From an uncultured Acidobacteriaceae bacterium (GTDB lineage Bacteria; Acidobacteriota; Terriglobia; Terriglobales; Acidobacteriaceae): a DNA stretch of 64,000 nucleotides. Positions 12,677 through 63,320 of the stretch are shown here, piece by piece. The stretch is from assembly GCA_963715875.1 (NCBI GenBank), contig OY970281.1, positions 1,135,946 to 1,199,945 of the forward strand. Reading direction: 5' to 3'. Within the stretch, counting starts at the first letter, position 1. Each line of letters starts with the position of its first letter. Below the pieces are notes generated by a model, which saw only the letters and a list, made by a program, of their open reading frames with translations, was not told the DNA's origin and ran no database searches. Both the position numbers and the translations under genes were made by a program.

Positions 12677-12765
12677 AGCCGCGAAGCGGCGCAAGAATGC
12701 AGCCCACCGCGCAAGCGGTGGGTTGCGATAAGGAAATTAGTCAGAGCCCCAGCGGGGCGACAGAC
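12677..12765 (+). repeat. Family B repeat (triple-hairpin ~90-nt element), copy 1
   Basis: The consensus is AGCCGCGAAGCGGCGCAAGAATGCAGCCCACCGCGCAAGCGGTGGGT..(about 20 nt)..AGAGCCCCAGCGGGGCGAAAGA. Confidence 0.8.
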
Positions 12766-21994: not shown

Positions 21995-23305
21995 CTAAGA
22001 AAGCGCCCCAAACGCCCCCTTCGCCGCCGCCACCGTCCGCGATACATCTTCCTCCGTATGCGTCGCCCCCAAGAACGCCGCCTCATACTGCGATGGCGGC
22101 AAATACACTCCGCTGTCGAGCATCGCCCGAAAGAATTTTCCAAACGCCTTCGTATCCGACTTCGATGCCGAATCCCAATCCGTCACCGGCCCTTCAGTGA
22201 AGAACCACGTAAACATCGATCCCACGCGGTTGTAGCAAAGCGGCACGCTTGCTTCTTTCGCCGCCGCCCCCACTCCCTCCACCAACTTCCCGCTCAGCGT
22301 ATCGATCCGCGAATAGATTTCTTTTTTCCCATCGCGCAAATGTTTCAACATCGCGCATCCCGCCGCCATCGCCAGCGGATTCCCTGACAAAGTCCCCGCC
22401 TGGTACATCGGCCCCAGCGGCGCCACCAGATTCATCATCTCGCTCGACCCGCCATACGCCCCCACCGGCAATCCTCCGCCAATAATCTTCCCCATCGTCG
22501 TCACGTCTGGACGGATGTTGTAAAGTTCCTGCGCTCCCCCGTAAGCCACGCGAAATCCCGTCATCACCTCATCGAAAATCAGTACCGATTTTTCCCGCTC
22601 CGTTATCATCCGCAACGCCACCAGATAATCGTCCGCCGCCGGAACGCATCCCATATTTCCCACGATCGGTTCCACGATCACGCACGCAATCTGATGCTTG
22701 AACTTCTGGAACGCATATTCCACCGCCTTCACGTTATTGAACGGCAGCGCCAGCGTGAATTGCGTGAACTCCTCCGGAACCCCCGCCGATCCCGGAATCC
22801 CCAGCGTCGCCACTCCCGACCCCGCCTTCACCAGCAGGGAATCGGAGTGCCCGTGATAACACCCCTCAAACTTCACAATATATTTTCGTTTCGTATATGC
22901 GCGCGCCAGCCGGATCGCCGACATCGTCGCTTCCGTCCCCGAACTCACGAACCGCACTTTCTCCATCGATGGAAACGCCGCCAGCACCAGCTCCGCCAGA
23001 TCCGCCTCCGACGGCGTCGACGCTCCAAAGCTCGTTCCATTGCACGCCGCGCTGACGATCGCATCCAGCACGTCCGGCGCAGCATGGCCCAGAATCAGCG
23101 GCCCCCACGATCCCACGTAATCGATGTATTCGTTTTCGTCGGCATCCCACGTGTGCGACCCTTTCCCCCGCACGATAAACGGAGGATCGCCTCCCACCGA
23201 GCCAAACGCCCGCACTGGCGAATTCACTCCGCCGGGAATCATGCTTTCGGCGCGTTGCTGCAGACGCCGCGACTGCTCCACTTTTCGAGACGTGATAGAC
23301 GGCAT
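21995..23305 (-). CDS. hemL: Glutamate-1-semialdehyde 2,1-aminomutase
   Basis: [19 protein letters not shown]...[16 protein letters not shown] is diagnostic. The start is ATG 23305, with an alternative GTG at 23323. Confidence 0.95.
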
Positions 23306-23472
23306 AACGCTCCAGATCGCCACAATTCAACCACTGATTTCGCGCAAGCGAATACTATAGCAGCGCACCGCCCCACAAATTAACCAGATATTCACCTTTT
23401 CGCCATCTTCGTGCAACATCGCCCCAGTAGCCTCATCTCATCACGTTGCCCTTCTAACCGGGAGGGTTTCGA

Positions 23473-23506
23473 GGACAGCTTCGGGGGCTCCGAGCTGTCC
23501 TTTTTA
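23473..23506 (+). terminator. Orphan terminator-like hairpin (+ orientation) upstream of the porin promoter
   Basis: The stem GGACAGCT (23473-80) / AGCTGTCC (23493-500) is followed by TTTTT. No + strand CDS ends upstream of it. Confidence 0.35.
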
Positions 23507-23581
23507 CTTTCCCCCATTTGTATGTTCCCGCAGAGCTGTTTCGGCCTGTTACGCGCCTTCCCCAACACTCTGGGTCCTCGA

Positions 23582-23599
23582 AGTTAACTATAGTTAACT
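23582..23599. promoter_or_regulatory. Perfect 18-bp palindrome, predicted MntR (DtxR-family) operator
   Basis: AGTTAACTATAGTTAACT is its own reverse complement. It sits 8 nt upstream of a TATAGT -10 candidate (23608-13) and 42 nt upstream of the porin ATG. Confidence 0.5.
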
Positions 23600-23640
23600 C
23601 GCTGTGATATAGTTCCGTAACCACCGCTGCCATCGTAATC

Positions 23641-25122
23641 ATGAAATTGGAATTTGTTTTCAAAATCGCTCTGGGAACTCACGCGCCCTATCGTTCTGTT
23701 CCTCCCTGCCTGGTGCTGCTGCTGATTGCCTTCGCATGCTTTGCCCCTGCCCGCGCCCAGCAGCCCGACGTCCCTTCCGCGCCACAGGCCGCCTCCGCGC
23801 AATCGCCGGACGCCGCCACTGCCGCCGCCGCGCCCGCAGACGATGATCCCGAACCGATGCTTCCCCATTTCAAAGACTCGCGCTTCTGGCTCTCCGGTCA
23901 GGCCAACTTCATCTTTCAGACTCATCCTCCGTTCCACGCGCCTTATAGCGGCACGAACAGTCTCAGCCCCAACTACGAGAAGGCCACGTCCCGCGTCATG
24001 ACGCTTTACACCGGCGTCCGCCTCAACAATTCCACCGAAATCCTCATCGACATCGAAGAGGCCGGAGGAGCCGCGCTCAGCACCGGTCTCGGCCTGGCCG
24101 GCAACACCGATCTCGACATCGTGCGCAATCCCAGCCTGAGCAAAGCTCCGTATCTCGGCCGTGGCATGATTCACAAGGTTTTTGCCTTGAGCAAAGACAA
24201 AGTCGAAAACCAGCGCAGCTTCCTTTCTCTCTTCGACCAACTCCCGCGCCGCCGCCTCGAACTCCGCTTCGGCAAATTCAGCATGCCCGATTTTTTCGAC
24301 ATCAATTCCGTCGGCTCCGACACTCATCTTCAATTCATCAACTGGACCACCGACAACAACGGTGCCTACGACTATGCCGCCGACACCCGCGGTTACACCG
24401 TCGGCCTGACCGCCGATTTCGAAGACCGCAACTGGGGATTCCGTTTCGCCGAGGTCTTGATGCCGAAAGTGGCGAACGGAATTGATCTGGTGTGGAAGCC
24501 CTGGCAAGCCCACGCGGAAAACTTCGAGTACGAATTGCGCCACGGCTTGATCCCAAAAAAAACCGGCACAGTCCGGCTCCTGGCCTATACCAACTACGCC
24601 AACATGGGCATCTACCGCGAAGCCGTCGCCAATTTCGCAGCCGGCCTCACGCCCGTCCCCGAGATCGCCGACCATCCCTGGCACATCACCCGCAAGTATG
24701 GATTCGGTATCAACCTCGAGCAGAACCTCACCCACTACCTCACCGCATTCGCTCGCTTTGGCTGGGACAACGGCAAGACCGAATCTTTCGCCTACACCGA
24801 AGTCGATCAAACTTTCGCCGAAGGCGTCGGCGCTAACGGCGCATGGTGGCATCGCAAACATGATCGCGCCGGCATCGCCTTCGTCAGCAACGCCATCTGC
24901 AAAGACCACCAAACCTATCTTGCCGATGGCGGACTCGGCTTCCTCCTCGGCGACGGAAAACTAAACTACGGCCGCGAAAATATCCTCGAGTCCTATTACA
25001 CCGTCCACCTCTGGCGCGGCATCTACCTCGCGCCCGGCGTCCAACACATCGAAAATCCCGGCTACAACCGCGACCGCGGCCCAGTCGTAGTCCCCAGCTT
25101 CCGCGCCCACGTAGAGTTCTGA
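23641..25122 (+). CDS. OprB-family (carbohydrate-selective-type) outer-membrane porin
   Basis: A signal peptide ends in APARAQ. Segments typical of OprB-like porins are present: FWLSGQANFIFQ...APYSGTNSL, RFGKFSMPDFFD, the aromatic-rich NWTTDNNGAYDYAADTRGYT, and a terminal F. Confidence 0.8.
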   Translation: MKLEFVFKIALGTHAPYRSVPPCLVLLLIAFACFAPARAQQPDVPSAPQAASAQSPDAATAAAAPADDDPEPMLPHFKDSRFWLSGQANFIFQTHPPFHAPYSGTNSLSPNYEKATSRVMTLYTGVRLNNSTEILIDIEEAGGAALSTGLGLAGNTDLDIVRNPSLSKAPYLGRGMIHKVFALSKDKVENQRSFLSLFDQLPRRRLELRFGKFSMPDFFDINSVGSDTHLQFINWTTDNNGAYDYAADTRGYTVGLTADFEDRNWGFRFAEVLMPKVANGIDLVWKPWQAHAENFEYELRHGLIPKKTGTVRLLAYTNYANMGIYREAVANFAAGLTPVPEIADHPWHITRKYGFGINLEQNLTHYLTAFARFGWDNGKTESFAYTEVDQTFAEGVGANGAWWHRKHDRAGIAFVSNAICKDHQTYLADGGLGFLLGDGKLNYGRENILESYYTVHLWRGIYLAPGVQHIENPGYNRDRGPVVVPSFRAHVEF

Positions 25123-30680: not shown

Positions 30681-30718
30681 ACCCTGTGATACCCCGTGTC
30701 CCCCGTGGTAAAGATTTT
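30681..30718 (+). repeat. Family D repeat, copy 2
   Basis: ACCCTGTGATACCCCGTGTCCCCCGTGGTAAAGATTTT. Confidence 0.75.
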
Positions 30719-34033: not shown

Positions 34034-34047
34034 TCTCGATCTTACCC

Positions 34048-34063
34048 ATTAACTACGCTTAAC
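34048..34063. promoter_or_regulatory. Degenerate MntR-box upstream of mntR (possible autoregulation)
   Basis: ATTAACTACGCTTAAC matches the core GTTAACTATAGTTAAC at 12 of 16 positions. It ends 6 nt before a perfect TATAAT (34070-75). Confidence 0.35.
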
Positions 34064-34084
34064 CCATCGTATAATCATCCCCAG

Positions 34085-34756
34085 ATGATCACCGTCTCTA
34101 AAGAGGACTATCTAAAAGCCATCCTCGAAGCCGAGAGCGAAGGCGAAGCCGTCATCTCCGCGCGCCTCGCCGAGTGGCTCAAAGTCTCCGCCCCCGCCGT
34201 CACCATGGCCGTGCGCCGCCTCAAAAAGGACGGCCTCGTCCGCGTTCCCGCCGACGGCCACGTCCGCCTCACCGCCGCCGGACGCAAGATCGCCCGCAAA
34301 CTCACCCTCCGCCACCACCTCATCGAACGTATGCTGTCGGAACTTTTCGGCATGGAATGGTGGAAGGTTCACGACGAAGCCGAGCGCCTCGAGCACGCCG
34401 TCTCCCCCGACTTCGAAGCCAAACTCCTGGCTAAACTCGGCAAGCGTGGCGCCTGCCCTCACGGCAATCTCAGCGAGATGGAAAGCCCCGCCAGCCGCCG
34501 CCATCGCGGACTCCTTCGCCTCGCCGACGCCTCTCCCGGCTCCGCCTACGCCGTCAGCGGCATCTACGAACGCGACCGCCGTCTCCTCGAATTCCTCGAA
34601 GCCCGCGGCATCCGTCCCGCCGCCAGACTCCGCCTCCTAGAGCGCAATTACGACCAGACTCTCACTCTATCCACCACCGCCGGCAGCGTCTCCCTCGGCC
34701 GCTCCGCCGCCGAACGCGTCTGGGTCTCCCCCGCCGACCCCCGCCCCGCCCGCTAA
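34085..34756 (+). CDS. mntR: DtxR/MntR-family metal-dependent transcriptional regulator with FeoA/SH3-like C-terminal domain
   Basis: KEDYLKAILEAESEGEAVISARLAEWLKVSAPAVTMAVRRLKKDGLV...RHHLIERML...HDEAERLEH is diagnostic. Confidence 0.88.
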   Translation: MITVSKEDYLKAILEAESEGEAVISARLAEWLKVSAPAVTMAVRRLKKDGLVRVPADGHVRLTAAGRKIARKLTLRHHLIERMLSELFGMEWWKVHDEAERLEHAVSPDFEAKLLAKLGKRGACPHGNLSEMESPASRRHRGLLRLADASPGSAYAVSGIYERDRRLLEFLEARGIRPAARLRLLERNYDQTLTLSTTAGSVSLGRSAAERVWVSPADPRPAR

Positions 34757-34975: not shown

Positions 34976-34993
34976 AGTTAACCATAGTTTATC
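34976..34993. promoter_or_regulatory. Predicted MntR operator upstream of mntH
   Basis: AGTTAACCATAGTTTATC matches the porin palindrome at 14 of 18 positions. It ends 8 nt before a TATACT -10 candidate (35002-07). Confidence 0.5.
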
Positions 34994-35023
34994 CCATCAT
35001 GTATACTATCGCTAACCCGACCG

Positions 35024-36382
35024 ATGAAGCCTCTGAGCACCGAAGAAGTCATCATCACCCACGAAGACGTCGACCGCGCCCATGACCGCGTCCGCGTCTC
35101 CGACGCCCGCGCCCACCGCGGCTTCTCCTCCAACGCCCGTCTTTTCTGGCTCCTCTTCGGTCCCGGCGTCCTAGTCATGCTCGGAGAGAACGACGGTCCC
35201 AGCATGCTCTCCTACGCCGCCACCGGAGCTAAATTCGGCGTCGGCTTCTTCATCCCCTTCGTCGCCCTCACCTTCTGCATGGCCATCGTCGTCCAGGAAA
35301 TGACCGTCCGCCTCGGCGCTGCCACCCATCGCGGCCATGCCGAACTCATCTTCGAGCGCTTCGGCCCCTTCTGGGGATGGTTTTCCATGATCGACCTCGG
35401 CATCGGCAATTTCCTCACCCTGATCACCGAGTTCATAGCCGTCCGCGCCGGCCTCGGTTTCTTCGGAGTCCCTCCCTGGATCGCCGTCCTCATCGCCCTC
35501 GTCATCCTCTACGCCGCCCTCATGAGCCACCGCTACTGGACATGGGAGCGCATCACCCTCGCCGCCGCCGCCTTCAATCTCGTCTTCATCCCAGTAGCGC
35601 TCATGACCCATCCCCACTGGCATGAAGTCACTCACGCCTTCATCACCTGGCAACCGCTCCCCGGCTTCAACAAGGACACGCTCTTGATCGTCCTCGCTGA
35701 CATCGGCGCCACCGTCACCCCATGGATGCTCTTCTTCCAGCAGAGCGCCACGGTCAACAAGGGCATGACCACCAAAGATATTCGCTTCGGCCGCGCCGAC
35801 ACCGTCCTCGGCGCCGCTCTCGCCACCGCTGCCGCCATCGCCACCATCCTCTGCACCGCGCCGCTCTTCGCTCATCAAATGTCCGCCGGAAATTTCGAAG
35901 CCGCCCAATTCGCCCAGGCCCTCGAACCCATCATCGGACACATCGGCGCATCTCTCTTCGCTCTCGGCATGGTCGAAGCCGGCATCGTCGCCGCCATCAC
36001 CATCTCCACTTCCTCCGCCTACGCCTTCGGAGAAGTGACCCACCGTCCCCACAGCCTCAATCTCCCCATGGGCGAAGGCAAATCGTTTTACGCCGTGCTC
36101 ACGCTCTGCGCTCTTGCCGCCGCCGTCATTGTTCTCATCCCCGGCCTTCCGCTCGTCTACGTCGTCCTCATCGTCAACGTGGTCGCAGTCCTCGCCATGC
36201 CGCCAGCCTTGGTCTTTCTCTTCATGTTGGTCAACGACAAAGAAATAATGGGAGACCTCGTCAGCCCCCTCTGGGCCAACATTCTCTCCAGCGGCGTGGT
36301 CCTGGTCCTCACCGCCGCCGGAATCCTCTTCGGCATCAGCATCCTGGCCCCCAACCTCTTCGCCACATTAGGAGGAAAATAG
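35024..36382 (+). CDS. mntH: NRAMP-family divalent metal (Mn2+) transporter
   Basis: GPGVLVMLGENDGPSM (DPGN-like region) and about 11 hydrophobic segments are present. Confidence 0.92.
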   Translation: MKPLSTEEVIITHEDVDRAHDRVRVSDARAHRGFSSNARLFWLLFGPGVLVMLGENDGPSMLSYAATGAKFGVGFFIPFVALTFCMAIVVQEMTVRLGAATHRGHAELIFERFGPFWGWFSMIDLGIGNFLTLITEFIAVRAGLGFFGVPPWIAVLIALVILYAALMSHRYWTWERITLAAAAFNLVFIPVALMTHPHWHEVTHAFITWQPLPGFNKDTLLIVLADIGATVTPWMLFFQQSATVNKGMTTKDIRFGRADTVLGAALATAAAIATILCTAPLFAHQMSAGNFEAAQFAQALEPIIGHIGASLFALGMVEAGIVAAITISTSSAYAFGEVTHRPHSLNLPMGEGKSFYAVLTLCALAAAVIVLIPGLPLVYVVLIVNVVAVLAMPPALVFLFMLVNDKEIMGDLVSPLWANILSSGVVLVLTAAGILFGISILAPNLFATLGGK

Positions 36383-52002: not shown

Positions 52003-52123
52003 GATTTTCAACCCGAGGTGTGCCCAGTCCCAGCCGCGAAGCGGCGAAAGAATGCAGCCCACCGCGTAAGCGGTGGGTCGGCCCAGCCGACAACGGAACC
52101 AGAGCCCCGAAGGGGCGAAAGAC
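52003..52123 (+). repeat. Family B repeat, copy 3 (with 5' extension GGGATTTTCAACCCGAGGTGTGCCCAGTCCC)
   Basis: The extension is shared with copy 4. The core runs 52032-52123. Confidence 0.8.
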
Positions 52124-55458: not shown

Positions 55459-55580
55459 TGGGATTTTCAACCTGAGGTGTGCCCAGTCCCAGCCGCAAAG
55501 CGGCGAAAGAATGCAGCCCACCGCGCAAGCGGTGGGTCACGAAAGGAAAACCAAGCAGAGCCCCAGCGGGGCGAAAGAGC
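55459..55580 (+). repeat. Family B repeat, copy 4 (with 5' extension)
   Basis: GGGATTTTCAACCTGAGGTGTGCCCAGTCCCAGCCGCAAAGCGGCGAAAGAATGCAGCCCACCGCGCAAGCGGTGGGTCACGAAAGGAAAACCAAGCAGAGCCCCAGCGGGGCGAAAGAGC. Confidence 0.85.
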
Positions 55581-58800: not shown

Positions 58801-58890
58801 AGCCGCGAAGCGGCGCAAGAATGCAGCCCACCGCGCAAGCGGTGGGTCACGAAAGGAAAATTAAGCAGAGCCCCAGCGGGGCGAAAGACC
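58801..58890 (+). repeat. Family B repeat, copy 5
   Basis: It is almost identical to copy 4 across the core. The trailing CGCTAACGGTGAC(T/C)ACCAT is shared with copy 6. Confidence 0.85.
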
Positions 58891-63231: not shown

Positions 63232-63320
63232 AGCCGCGAAGCGGCGCAAGAATGCAGCCCACCGCGCAAGCGGTGGGTCACGATAGCAAAATCAAGCAGA
63301 GCCCCAACGGGGCGAAAGAG
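63232..63320 (+). repeat. Family B repeat, copy 6
   Basis: AGCCGCGAAGCGGCGCAAGAATGCAGCCCACCGCGCAAGCGGTGGGTCACGATAGCAAAATCAAGCAGAGCCCCAACGGGGCGAAAGAGC. Confidence 0.85.

Follow-up and report, generated by a model that had tools for sequence, protein, structure and literature searches.

In Bradyrhizobium, the outer-membrane channel MnoP conducts Mn2+ in proteoliposomes and is required for Mn uptake at low Mn (PMC9334652), and its gene is co-regulated with mntH through Mur sites (PMC9334652, PMC9653421). In Acidithiobacillus, the OprB-family porin FeoP of the feoPABC genes has been tied to Fe2+ uptake with a Fur box (PMC2631029). Further described outer-membrane components are a TonB-dependent receptor module controlled by MntR in Stenotrophomonas maltophilia (PMC13217887) and MnoT in Burkholderia (PMC9334652). 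We examined a 64,000-nt stretch of contig OY970281.1 from an uncultured Acidobacteriaceae bacterium (hereafter, the window) that carries a perfect 18-bp palindrome in the promoter of an OprB-family porin gene, a similar box in front of a gene for an Nramp-related transporter and another in front of the gene for a DtxR-family metalloregulator (MntR). From sequence comparisons, we consider it likely that the palindrome is the operator of this predicted manganese sensor, whose gene lies 10.5 kb downstream of the porin box.

The predicted circuit resembles MnoP-MntH of Bradyrhizobium japonicum in joining an outer-membrane channel and an inner-membrane Nramp-type importer through a shared operator and, as predicted here, a Mn-responsive repressor. 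Co-regulation with an inner-membrane importer through a shared metalloregulator site, which characterizes MnoP, is therefore also predicted for the porin of the window, homologues of which carry the OprB domain (PF04966) and are assigned to K16080. The two systems differ, however, in the regulator, which belongs to the DtxR family here and is Fur-family Mur in Bradyrhizobium, and in the operator, which is unrelated to the Mur site. The genes are also 10 kb apart, in an acidobacterium, and the Nramp partner is non-canonical. FeoP provides the same association of an OprB-family porin with a divalent-metal importer via a metalloregulator box, but with Fe, Fur and operon linkage instead of Mn, MntR and distant genes. 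The Stenotrophomonas and MnoT systems share with the acidobacterial one a MntR box in the promoter of an outer-membrane protein gene, and TonB-receptor-like genes are found in relatives of the window. Yet the Stenotrophomonas MntR is of the two-domain E. coli type and has a 25-bp box, and the outer-membrane component here is a passive porin; a search of the window found no TonB-receptor-like protein.

The porin box, AGTTAACTATAGTTAACT (23582-23599), is identical to its own reverse complement and has a 6-6-6 layout (AGTTAA-CTATAG-TTAACT). It was the sole match in the window at three mismatches or fewer, a level at which none of 100 dinucleotide shuffles gave any match. At six mismatches or fewer, the 64 kb held six matches, and the three boxes include the two best of them (0 and 4 mismatches). 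A symmetric weight matrix trained only on the porin-ortholog promoters of other genomes found exactly three window sites at ≥8 bits: the porin operator with 33.9 bits (the matrix maximum), the Nramp-gene ("mntH") operator AGTTAACCATAGTTTATC (34976-34993) with 22.0 bits, and the mntR operator CATTAACTACGCTTAACC (34047-34064), a putative autoregulation site, with 16.5 bits; no strand is assigned to any of them. The maximum score over 20 shuffles was 11.6 bits. The half-sites read AGTTAA/TTAACT in the porin box, AGTTAA/TTTATC in that of the Nramp gene and CATTAA/TTAACC in that of mntR, so that the common part is the TTAA core only. An earlier note made from the sequence alone had pointed to the same three boxes. 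Its palindrome, ending 8 nt before TATAGT, was exact in sequence and coordinates, as were the 14 of 18 identities between the Nramp and porin boxes and the common 8-nt register to TATACT. The mntR box, first read as ATTAACTACGCTTAAC (34048-34063), was rightly placed before TATAAT, but its spacing of 5-6 nt is unlike the 8 nt of the other two.

Each of the three boxes is followed by a predicted -10 on the + strand. In the porin promoter, 8 nt (cgctgtga) separate the box from the hexamer TATAGT (23608-23613), and the preceding TGA makes this an extended -10 (TGATATAGT, TGn + TATAGT, 23605-23613). A promoter scan of 23300-23700 returned TTAACT-18-TATAGT with the upstream TG as its sole sigma-70-like match; this promoter overlaps the box, and its -35-like hexamer TTAACT (23584-23589) lies within the operator, 18 nt from the -10. 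A degenerate third half-site, CGTAAC (23616-23621; ortholog consensus cGTTAA), follows at box positions 35-40, near the predicted transcription start. The Nramp gene repeats this design, with its TG + TATACT (35000-35007; hexamer at 35002-35007) 8 nt past the box and a downstream half-site, CGCTAA (35010-35015), again at box positions 35-40. The mntR -10, TATAAT (34070-34075), is about 9 nt ahead of the start codon, leaving a short leader or none. Alignments of orthologous promoters recover the same register for the porin and Nramp genes in relatives: box, 8 nt, -10 and then CG(T/C)TAA at box positions 35-40. The Nramp promoter consensus is AGTTAACCATrGTTTATy-N6-TGTATACTtaCGCTAATCT, with the box kept in 20 of 21 aligned loci and CGCTAATC nearly invariant at the downstream half-site (20/21 promoters), and that of mntR is rTTAACCAyGCTTAACy-N5-CGTATAATC, about 20 nt ahead of the start codon. 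At gathering thresholds, Rfam returned neither a riboswitch nor any other RNA close to the three promoters, and no M-box in the window.

The earlier note had proposed comparative genomics as a check on the linkage of box and porin. We assembled 80 loci (1.58 Mb in total), one per species-level genome, with porins 75-87% identical to that of the window; the nearest relatives are Candidatus Sulfotelmatobacter, Acidobacteriaceae and Terriglobales metagenome-assembled genomes. Counts for the porin upstream regions cover 78 orthologs. Within 350 nt upstream of the porin, 62 loci have a box with at most five mismatches to the palindrome, and a -10-like hexamer stands exactly 8 nt past the box in 36 of the 62. 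At the level of the matrix, the linkage is present in 63 of the 78 genomes. The sequence logo of these boxes has both TTAA cores invariant (63/63) and flanks of 0-0.1 bits; the porin upstream regions are therefore otherwise randomised. Conserved in addition, although not used in locating the box, are TGnTATAnT (box positions 24-32) and cGTTAA (35-40). Because finding sites by similarity inflates their conservation, we added an unbiased count of 8-mers. The most enriched, ATAGTTAA, occurred in 52 of the 78 porin upstream regions and in 3 of 1460 control segments, and the second, GTTAACTA, in 48 and 4, respectively.

Across the 1.58 Mb, the matrix at ≥13 bits gave 120 matches: 63 porin, 29 mntR (from 32 related loci aligned at the mntR box), 21 Nramp gene and 7 others. 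Five of the seven others are of the mntR or mntH type and stand at the ends of loci that stop short of the gene; the remaining two are upstream of a canonical Nramp (L075) and of a TonB-receptor-like outer-membrane protein of 1143 aa with a CarboxypepD_reg domain and a large beta-barrel (L049). Frequent occurrence at random or intragenic positions had been named beforehand as grounds for rejecting the motif; all 120 matches are promoter-located and none falls inside a gene. The conserved, shared box and the confinement of its matches to metal-uptake genes and mntR support the proposal that MntR co-regulates the porin with mntH.

An exact scan of a metagenome collection for the 16-mer GTTAACYATRGTTAAC gave at least 120 contigs, which we split at a guanine-plus-cytosine content (GC) of 0.5. 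Among the matches listed, 33 of the 51 contigs with GC ≥0.5 have, immediately downstream of the box, a homologue of the porin (10), a canonical Nramp (11), the TonB-receptor-like protein (11) or a mntR homologue, compared with 2 of the 69 low-GC contigs. The low-GC contigs (69 of the 120 listed) resemble chance matches or tandem GGTTAACCATGG repeats and were disregarded. On several contigs, the box is flanked on one side by a TonB-receptor-like gene and on the other by a divergent mntR homologue whose product is 33-55% identical to the MntR of the window. The box is thus found beside DtxR-family genes in at least three gene arrangements and therefore travels with those genes.

The TonB-receptor-like proteins linked to the box have about 1150 aa with CarboxypepD_reg and OMP_b-brl_4 domains, and their genes are often divergent from the mntR homologue (L049:15194-15211; metagenome contigs L110, L112, L113, L118, L142, L157, L175 and L198). 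In L049, the porin itself has no box, and its absence there, together with the TonB-receptor-like genes behind the box, suggests alternative outer-membrane gates for Mn. On a contig with a GC of 0.67 (L159:3950), the box lies between a mntR homologue and the gene for a weakly Porin_O_P-like, 424-aa outer-membrane protein, which adds a third type to the outer-membrane proteins associated with the box.

The regulator gene (34085-34756, + strand) encodes a three-domain protein matching PF01325 (Fe_dep_repress, 2.4e-13), PF02742 (Fe_dep_repr_C, 2.1e-21) and, at the C-terminus, the FeoA/SH3-like PF04023 (1e-08), and it adjoins the Nramp gene (35024-36382), as the earlier note had described for mntR and mntH. 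Its best PDB match is MntR of M. tuberculosis (5zr4), followed by IdeR, DtxR, SloR and ScaR; the protein falls below all equivalog cut-offs of NCBIfam. Asp8 and Glu100 align with Met10 and Cys102 of IdeR/DtxR, and His77, Glu81, His96, Glu103 and His104 are conserved. Acidic ligands at the primary site typify Mn-specific members of the DtxR family, whereas Fe sensors use sulphur ligands (10.1101/2024.02.12.579695). Judged by the residues of its metal site, the window regulator is a Mn-type sensor. Asp or Asn and Glu also occupy the Met and Cys positions in all the high-GC (acidobacterial-type) DtxR homologues linked to the box and in one low-GC homologue. The window protein has a Met at the position of DtxR Gln43, so a different operator would be expected.

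The layout of the operator has its closest counterpart in Streptococcus mutans, where SloR binds AATTAA-N6-TTAATT units that overlap the -35 and neighbouring units bind cooperatively (PMC12096823); the mntH site of S. mutans, TTTTAAGCATACTTAACA, overlaps a TTAACA -35 (PMC12096823). The porin box likewise has two 6-bp inverted half-sites around a 6-bp spacer, making an 18-bp operator with TTAA-containing half-sites, and covers a -35-like hexamer, with 8 nt left between the box and the -10. Also as in SloR and ScaR, the regulator has three domains with a C-terminal FeoA/SH3-like domain, extra neighbouring sites suggest cooperative binding, and autoregulation is predicted. None of the boxes has the SloR half-sites AATTAA/TTAATT, however, and only the TTAA core is shared. 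Two of the three have AGTTAA instead of AATTAA, one or two bases off, and the window MntR is overall nearer to M. tuberculosis MntR and IdeR, in a two-membrane organism whose predicted regulon includes outer-membrane proteins. Other operators that we compared were dissimilar: the E. coli/alpha-proteobacterial MntR box AACATAGC-N4-GCTATGTT (PMC1698941) and the DR2539 site of D. radiodurans, ATTTTAGTCGCGCCTAAAAT. The box is also unlike the Fur and Mur boxes. Nor does it resemble the 19-mer operator of DtxR/IdeR.

The porin (23641-25122, + strand; 493 aa) had been called OprB-type in the earlier note, and residues 203-493 indeed match PF04966 (2e-25; 90.5 bits with a cut-off of 22.9). A single-sequence search of the PDB found nothing meaningful for it, and NCBIfam has no model; a profile of 64 homologues retrieved only OprB of P. 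putida (E 3e-06). An AlphaFold2 model from 35 homologues at least 80% identical was discarded for its low confidence (predicted local distance difference test, pLDDT, of 33.6), and a model from diverse homologues was used instead (pLDDT 88.9; predicted template modelling score 0.84). It consists of a signal peptide, a disordered acidic, proline-rich linker and, from about residue 80, a beta-barrel. The top Foldseek match of the model was P. putida OprB (4gey; E 1.1e-19, TM 0.71 normalised to target), and the modelled porin has the OprB fold. The assignment of a solute is less direct. Most homologues of 78-91% identity, all with PF04966, are named 'high affinity Mn2+ porin' by JGI, which is the name of KEGG K16080 mnoP (PMC9653421), and 'carbohydrate porin' by NCBI; the JGI name is also given to homologues of only 34-42% identity. 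The earlier note had asked whether MnoP belongs to the same porin family as this candidate Mn2+ channel. The naming of OprB-bearing homologues as K16080 mnoP suggests that it may, and that the porin is a possible orthologue of Bradyrhizobium blr0095, but the label is generous.

The porin loci of relatives showed additional features. In L038, L047 and L059, a gene for a distant Nramp homologue (35-43% identical to that of the window) lies immediately upstream of the porin gene, at 1-3 kb; the two genes are physically closer to each other there than they are in the window. About 40 of the 78 porin upstream regions carry cTGTAACATTCCTTTAACC-N7-GCGTAGGCT (e.g., L030:9690-9725, L064, L074, L036 and L007), and ATGTTACA was found in 40 of the 78 and in 1 of 1460 controls. 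The AAC...CGT pattern of this element resembles a promoter for an extracytoplasmic function (ECF) sigma factor and is also present in loci that have no MntR box; no such element was recognisable in the window. Between the -10 and the porin start, ten loci (L001, L007, L019, L036, L064, L074, L006, L068, L054 and L071) have a second palindrome, GTGAyGAATATCAC or TGTGATAATTGTCACA, which may be a Fur-family site, implying dual control by Fe and Mn. The second palindrome is absent from the window, where the porin leader is much shorter. Many relatives (e.g., L001, L036 and L064) also have a small conserved open reading frame (…MAMATTQLAR…LRMNWVVVTG…RMHW…) that separates the porin promoter from the gene upstream, and this too is absent from the window.

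The transporter next to mntR (35024-36382, + strand; 452 aa) belongs to the Nramp family (PF01566, 5.3e-63), so that its earlier designation as mntH holds for the family but not for the metal site, where DxxS (LGENDGPS) and AxxT with a His-to-Trp exchange (GATVTPWM) replace the canonical DxxN/AxxM signature (PMC8806188). With the MntH model of NCBIfam it scored 102.8 bits against a cut-off of 430, and it reached none of the other equivalog cut-offs there either. Its identity to the canonical Nramp that follows the same box in L075 is only 27%; where that protein has DPGN, ATVM and the two His of helix 6b, it has DGPS, ATVT, and Trp and Gln, respectively. The Nramps linked to the box in metagenomes also have the canonical DPGN/GATVMPH. 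Its orthologs keep the non-canonical motifs of helix 1 (19/19) and helix 6 (7/7). Classical Nramps carry DxxN-A/CxxM, Al transporters (NRAT) DxxN-AxxT and Mg transporters (NRMT) DxxG-TxxA/T with His-to-Trp (PMC8806188). The DxxS-AxxT of the window fits none of these types exactly and its substrate is therefore uncertain. As in the NRMT outgroup (PMC4072509, PMC8806188), the canonical Met is absent and Trp stands for the first conserved His, as in EleNRMT. The protein does not fall within that group, however: its signature differs, the upstream gene is mntR instead of an MgtE-fragment gene, and control by a Mn-type repressor is predicted with no M-box riboswitch. EcoDMT deprived of its Met still transports Mn2+ (PMC8806188), and an Nramp-outgroup protein of Acidobacterium capsulatum was judged a likely Mn carrier (PMC4072509). 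Given the regulator, Mn2+ is our best guess for the substrate.

We infer that MntR binds the box, that it represses and does not activate, that its effector is Mn and that the porin passes Mn2+. With sufficient Mn2+, a metal-loaded MntR dimer would bind AGTTAA-N6-TTAACT. The site covers the -35 and the spacer directly upstream of the extended -10, so we propose that RNA polymerase would be excluded. A second dimer probably joins cooperatively at the conserved extra half-site CG(T/C)TAA, close to the transcription start. When Mn2+ becomes scarce, apo-MntR would leave the DNA and the three promoters would fire together, providing entry through the outer membrane (OprB-type porin) and the inner membrane (Nramp-related importer) and, through mntR, autoregulation. 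The order of the box scores (33.9 > 22.0 > 16.5) suggests a graded release, with mntR first and the porin last. Repression is favoured because of the position of the site and because its targets are uptake genes.

Several observations weigh against this proposal. No box was found within 3 kb of 15 of the 78 porin orthologs, so that membership in the regulon is not universal. The third half-site of the window porin matches the ortholog consensus at only 4 of 6 positions, and the transported metal of an Nramp lacking the canonical Met and Asn ligands is not certain. In addition, the DNA-binding domain of MntR taken alone is closest to IdeR and DtxR, whose operators differ from the box. That resemblance, the ability of DtxR-family proteins to bind several transition metals in vitro, and a low-GC contig (L141) that has the same 16-mer and a DtxR homologue with Met/Cys, the Fe-type residues, would fit control by another regulator or another metal, such as Fe2+ through a Fur-type or Fe-type DtxR protein, with the adjacency of mntR being coincidental. 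We regard this as very unlikely, since the box recurs in its several arrangements beside DtxR-family genes of 33-55% identity, the high-GC ones always encoding Asp/Asn and Glu, in about 30 genomes mntR is itself preceded by the box, and the targets are Nramp-type importers; the box also resembles neither the DtxR/IdeR 19-mer nor the E. coli MntR (PMC1698941) and DR2539 sites. Still less credible, to the point of being close to negligible, is that the boxes are shared core-promoter elements or chance matches involving no dedicated regulator. TTAACT does agree with the -35 consensus at 4 of 6 positions with an 18-nt spacer, and all three genes have a strong -10, but a -35 hexamer cannot account for a perfect 18-bp dyad or for an invariant second TTAA core 10 bp downstream, and the motif is absent from every other promoter in the 1.58 Mb and from the 100 shuffles.

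More weight must be given to the nature of the channel. Even with a genuine operator, the porin could be an OprB of the general or sugar type, or could admit Fe2+ or further divalent cations, and be switched on at low Mn with no dedicated Mn2+ gating. OprB is the founding glucose porin, in line with the NCBI name 'carbohydrate porin', and FeoP of Acidithiobacillus, an OprB-family porin with a Fur box, is connected to the uptake of Fe2+ (PMC2631029). Some of the related porin promoters have the ECF-like promoter and the Fur-like palindrome. The KEGG orthology label of Mn2+ porin is applied generously: a 34%-identical protein so named (P0290) lies beside a two-component system with no Mn genes there, and the label is therefore weak evidence by itself. 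We nevertheless consider a general channel unlikely, because the only other genes found with this operator are those for Nramp transporters and a protein resembling TonB-dependent receptors, and mntR, and because MnoP, the reference protein of K16080, conducts Mn2+ and is needed for Mn uptake (PMC9334652). An operator of MntR in front of a candidate Mn2+ channel is the reading that we prefer.

Taken together, the loci may point to a Terriglobia-type MntR regulon that combines an outer-membrane gate interchangeable among species with, in this genome, an uncharacterised subclass of Nramp (DxxS-AxxT, His to Trp), a joint reading that we hold only tentatively. The gate would be the OprB-type porin in most species, a TonB-receptor-like protein in some (one of them with a porin that has no box) and, in another lineage, a protein like Porin_O_P. 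Members of the Nramp subclass, which lack the canonical Met and Asn, would either import Mn2+ or have a different metal range.

The window has other features around these genes. Neighbouring genes are housekeeping (an aminotransferase, an amidinotransferase-like gene, mfd and purD). Between the aminotransferase and porin genes (23440-23506), a conserved ttctaaccgggagggttt precedes a GC-rich hairpin with a T-run, which together resemble a terminator on the + strand; the stretch is common to L048, has no Rfam match and may represent the 3' terminus of a small transcript. An intergenic repeat, CTGTG(T/C)CCCCTGTGGT(T)AAAGAyTTT, is dispersed over the window at 30694, 34009, 34909 (+34944), 36997, 39968, 53394 and 55852, always on the + strand (8 matches at ≤2 mismatches, with 0.38 expected), and most copies precede a start codon by 40-100 nt, as is the case at mntR and the Nramp gene. 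The Acido-Lenti-1 RNA (RF01687) is present five times on the - strand (12677-12722, 52032-52077, 55491-55536, 58801-58846 and 63232-63277), with scores of 49.5-56.7 bits, above the gathering score of 37.

The components and the logic of the circuit are known from MnoP-MntH under Mur, MntR regulons, the MntR-controlled receptor of Stenotrophomonas and FeoP. As joint control of outer- and inner-membrane uptake by a Mn repressor is established in Bradyrhizobium and Stenotrophomonas, its prediction here is useful to a specialist and not surprising. Acidobacteria belong to the most abundant bacteria in soil, and cultured strains respond to Mn with increased growth. Our literature search turned up no definition of a Mn regulator, operator or regulon for this phylum, and a proteomic and genomic study of Granulicella left the regulator of Mn homeostasis unclear (PMC7315648); the papers retrieved that join OprB, manganese and mntH/MntR were only those on Acidithiobacillus. 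Beyond homology, the case for the OprB-type porin as a metal channel is its predicted co-regulation, a regulatory form of support that is independent of homology, and the non-canonical Nramp stands out as a noteworthy transporter. For the Acidobacteria, the analysis supplies an operator sequence, a candidate regulator and a small predicted regulon that would comprise the porin, the Nramp-type importer and mntR, together with a TonB-receptor-like protein in relatives.

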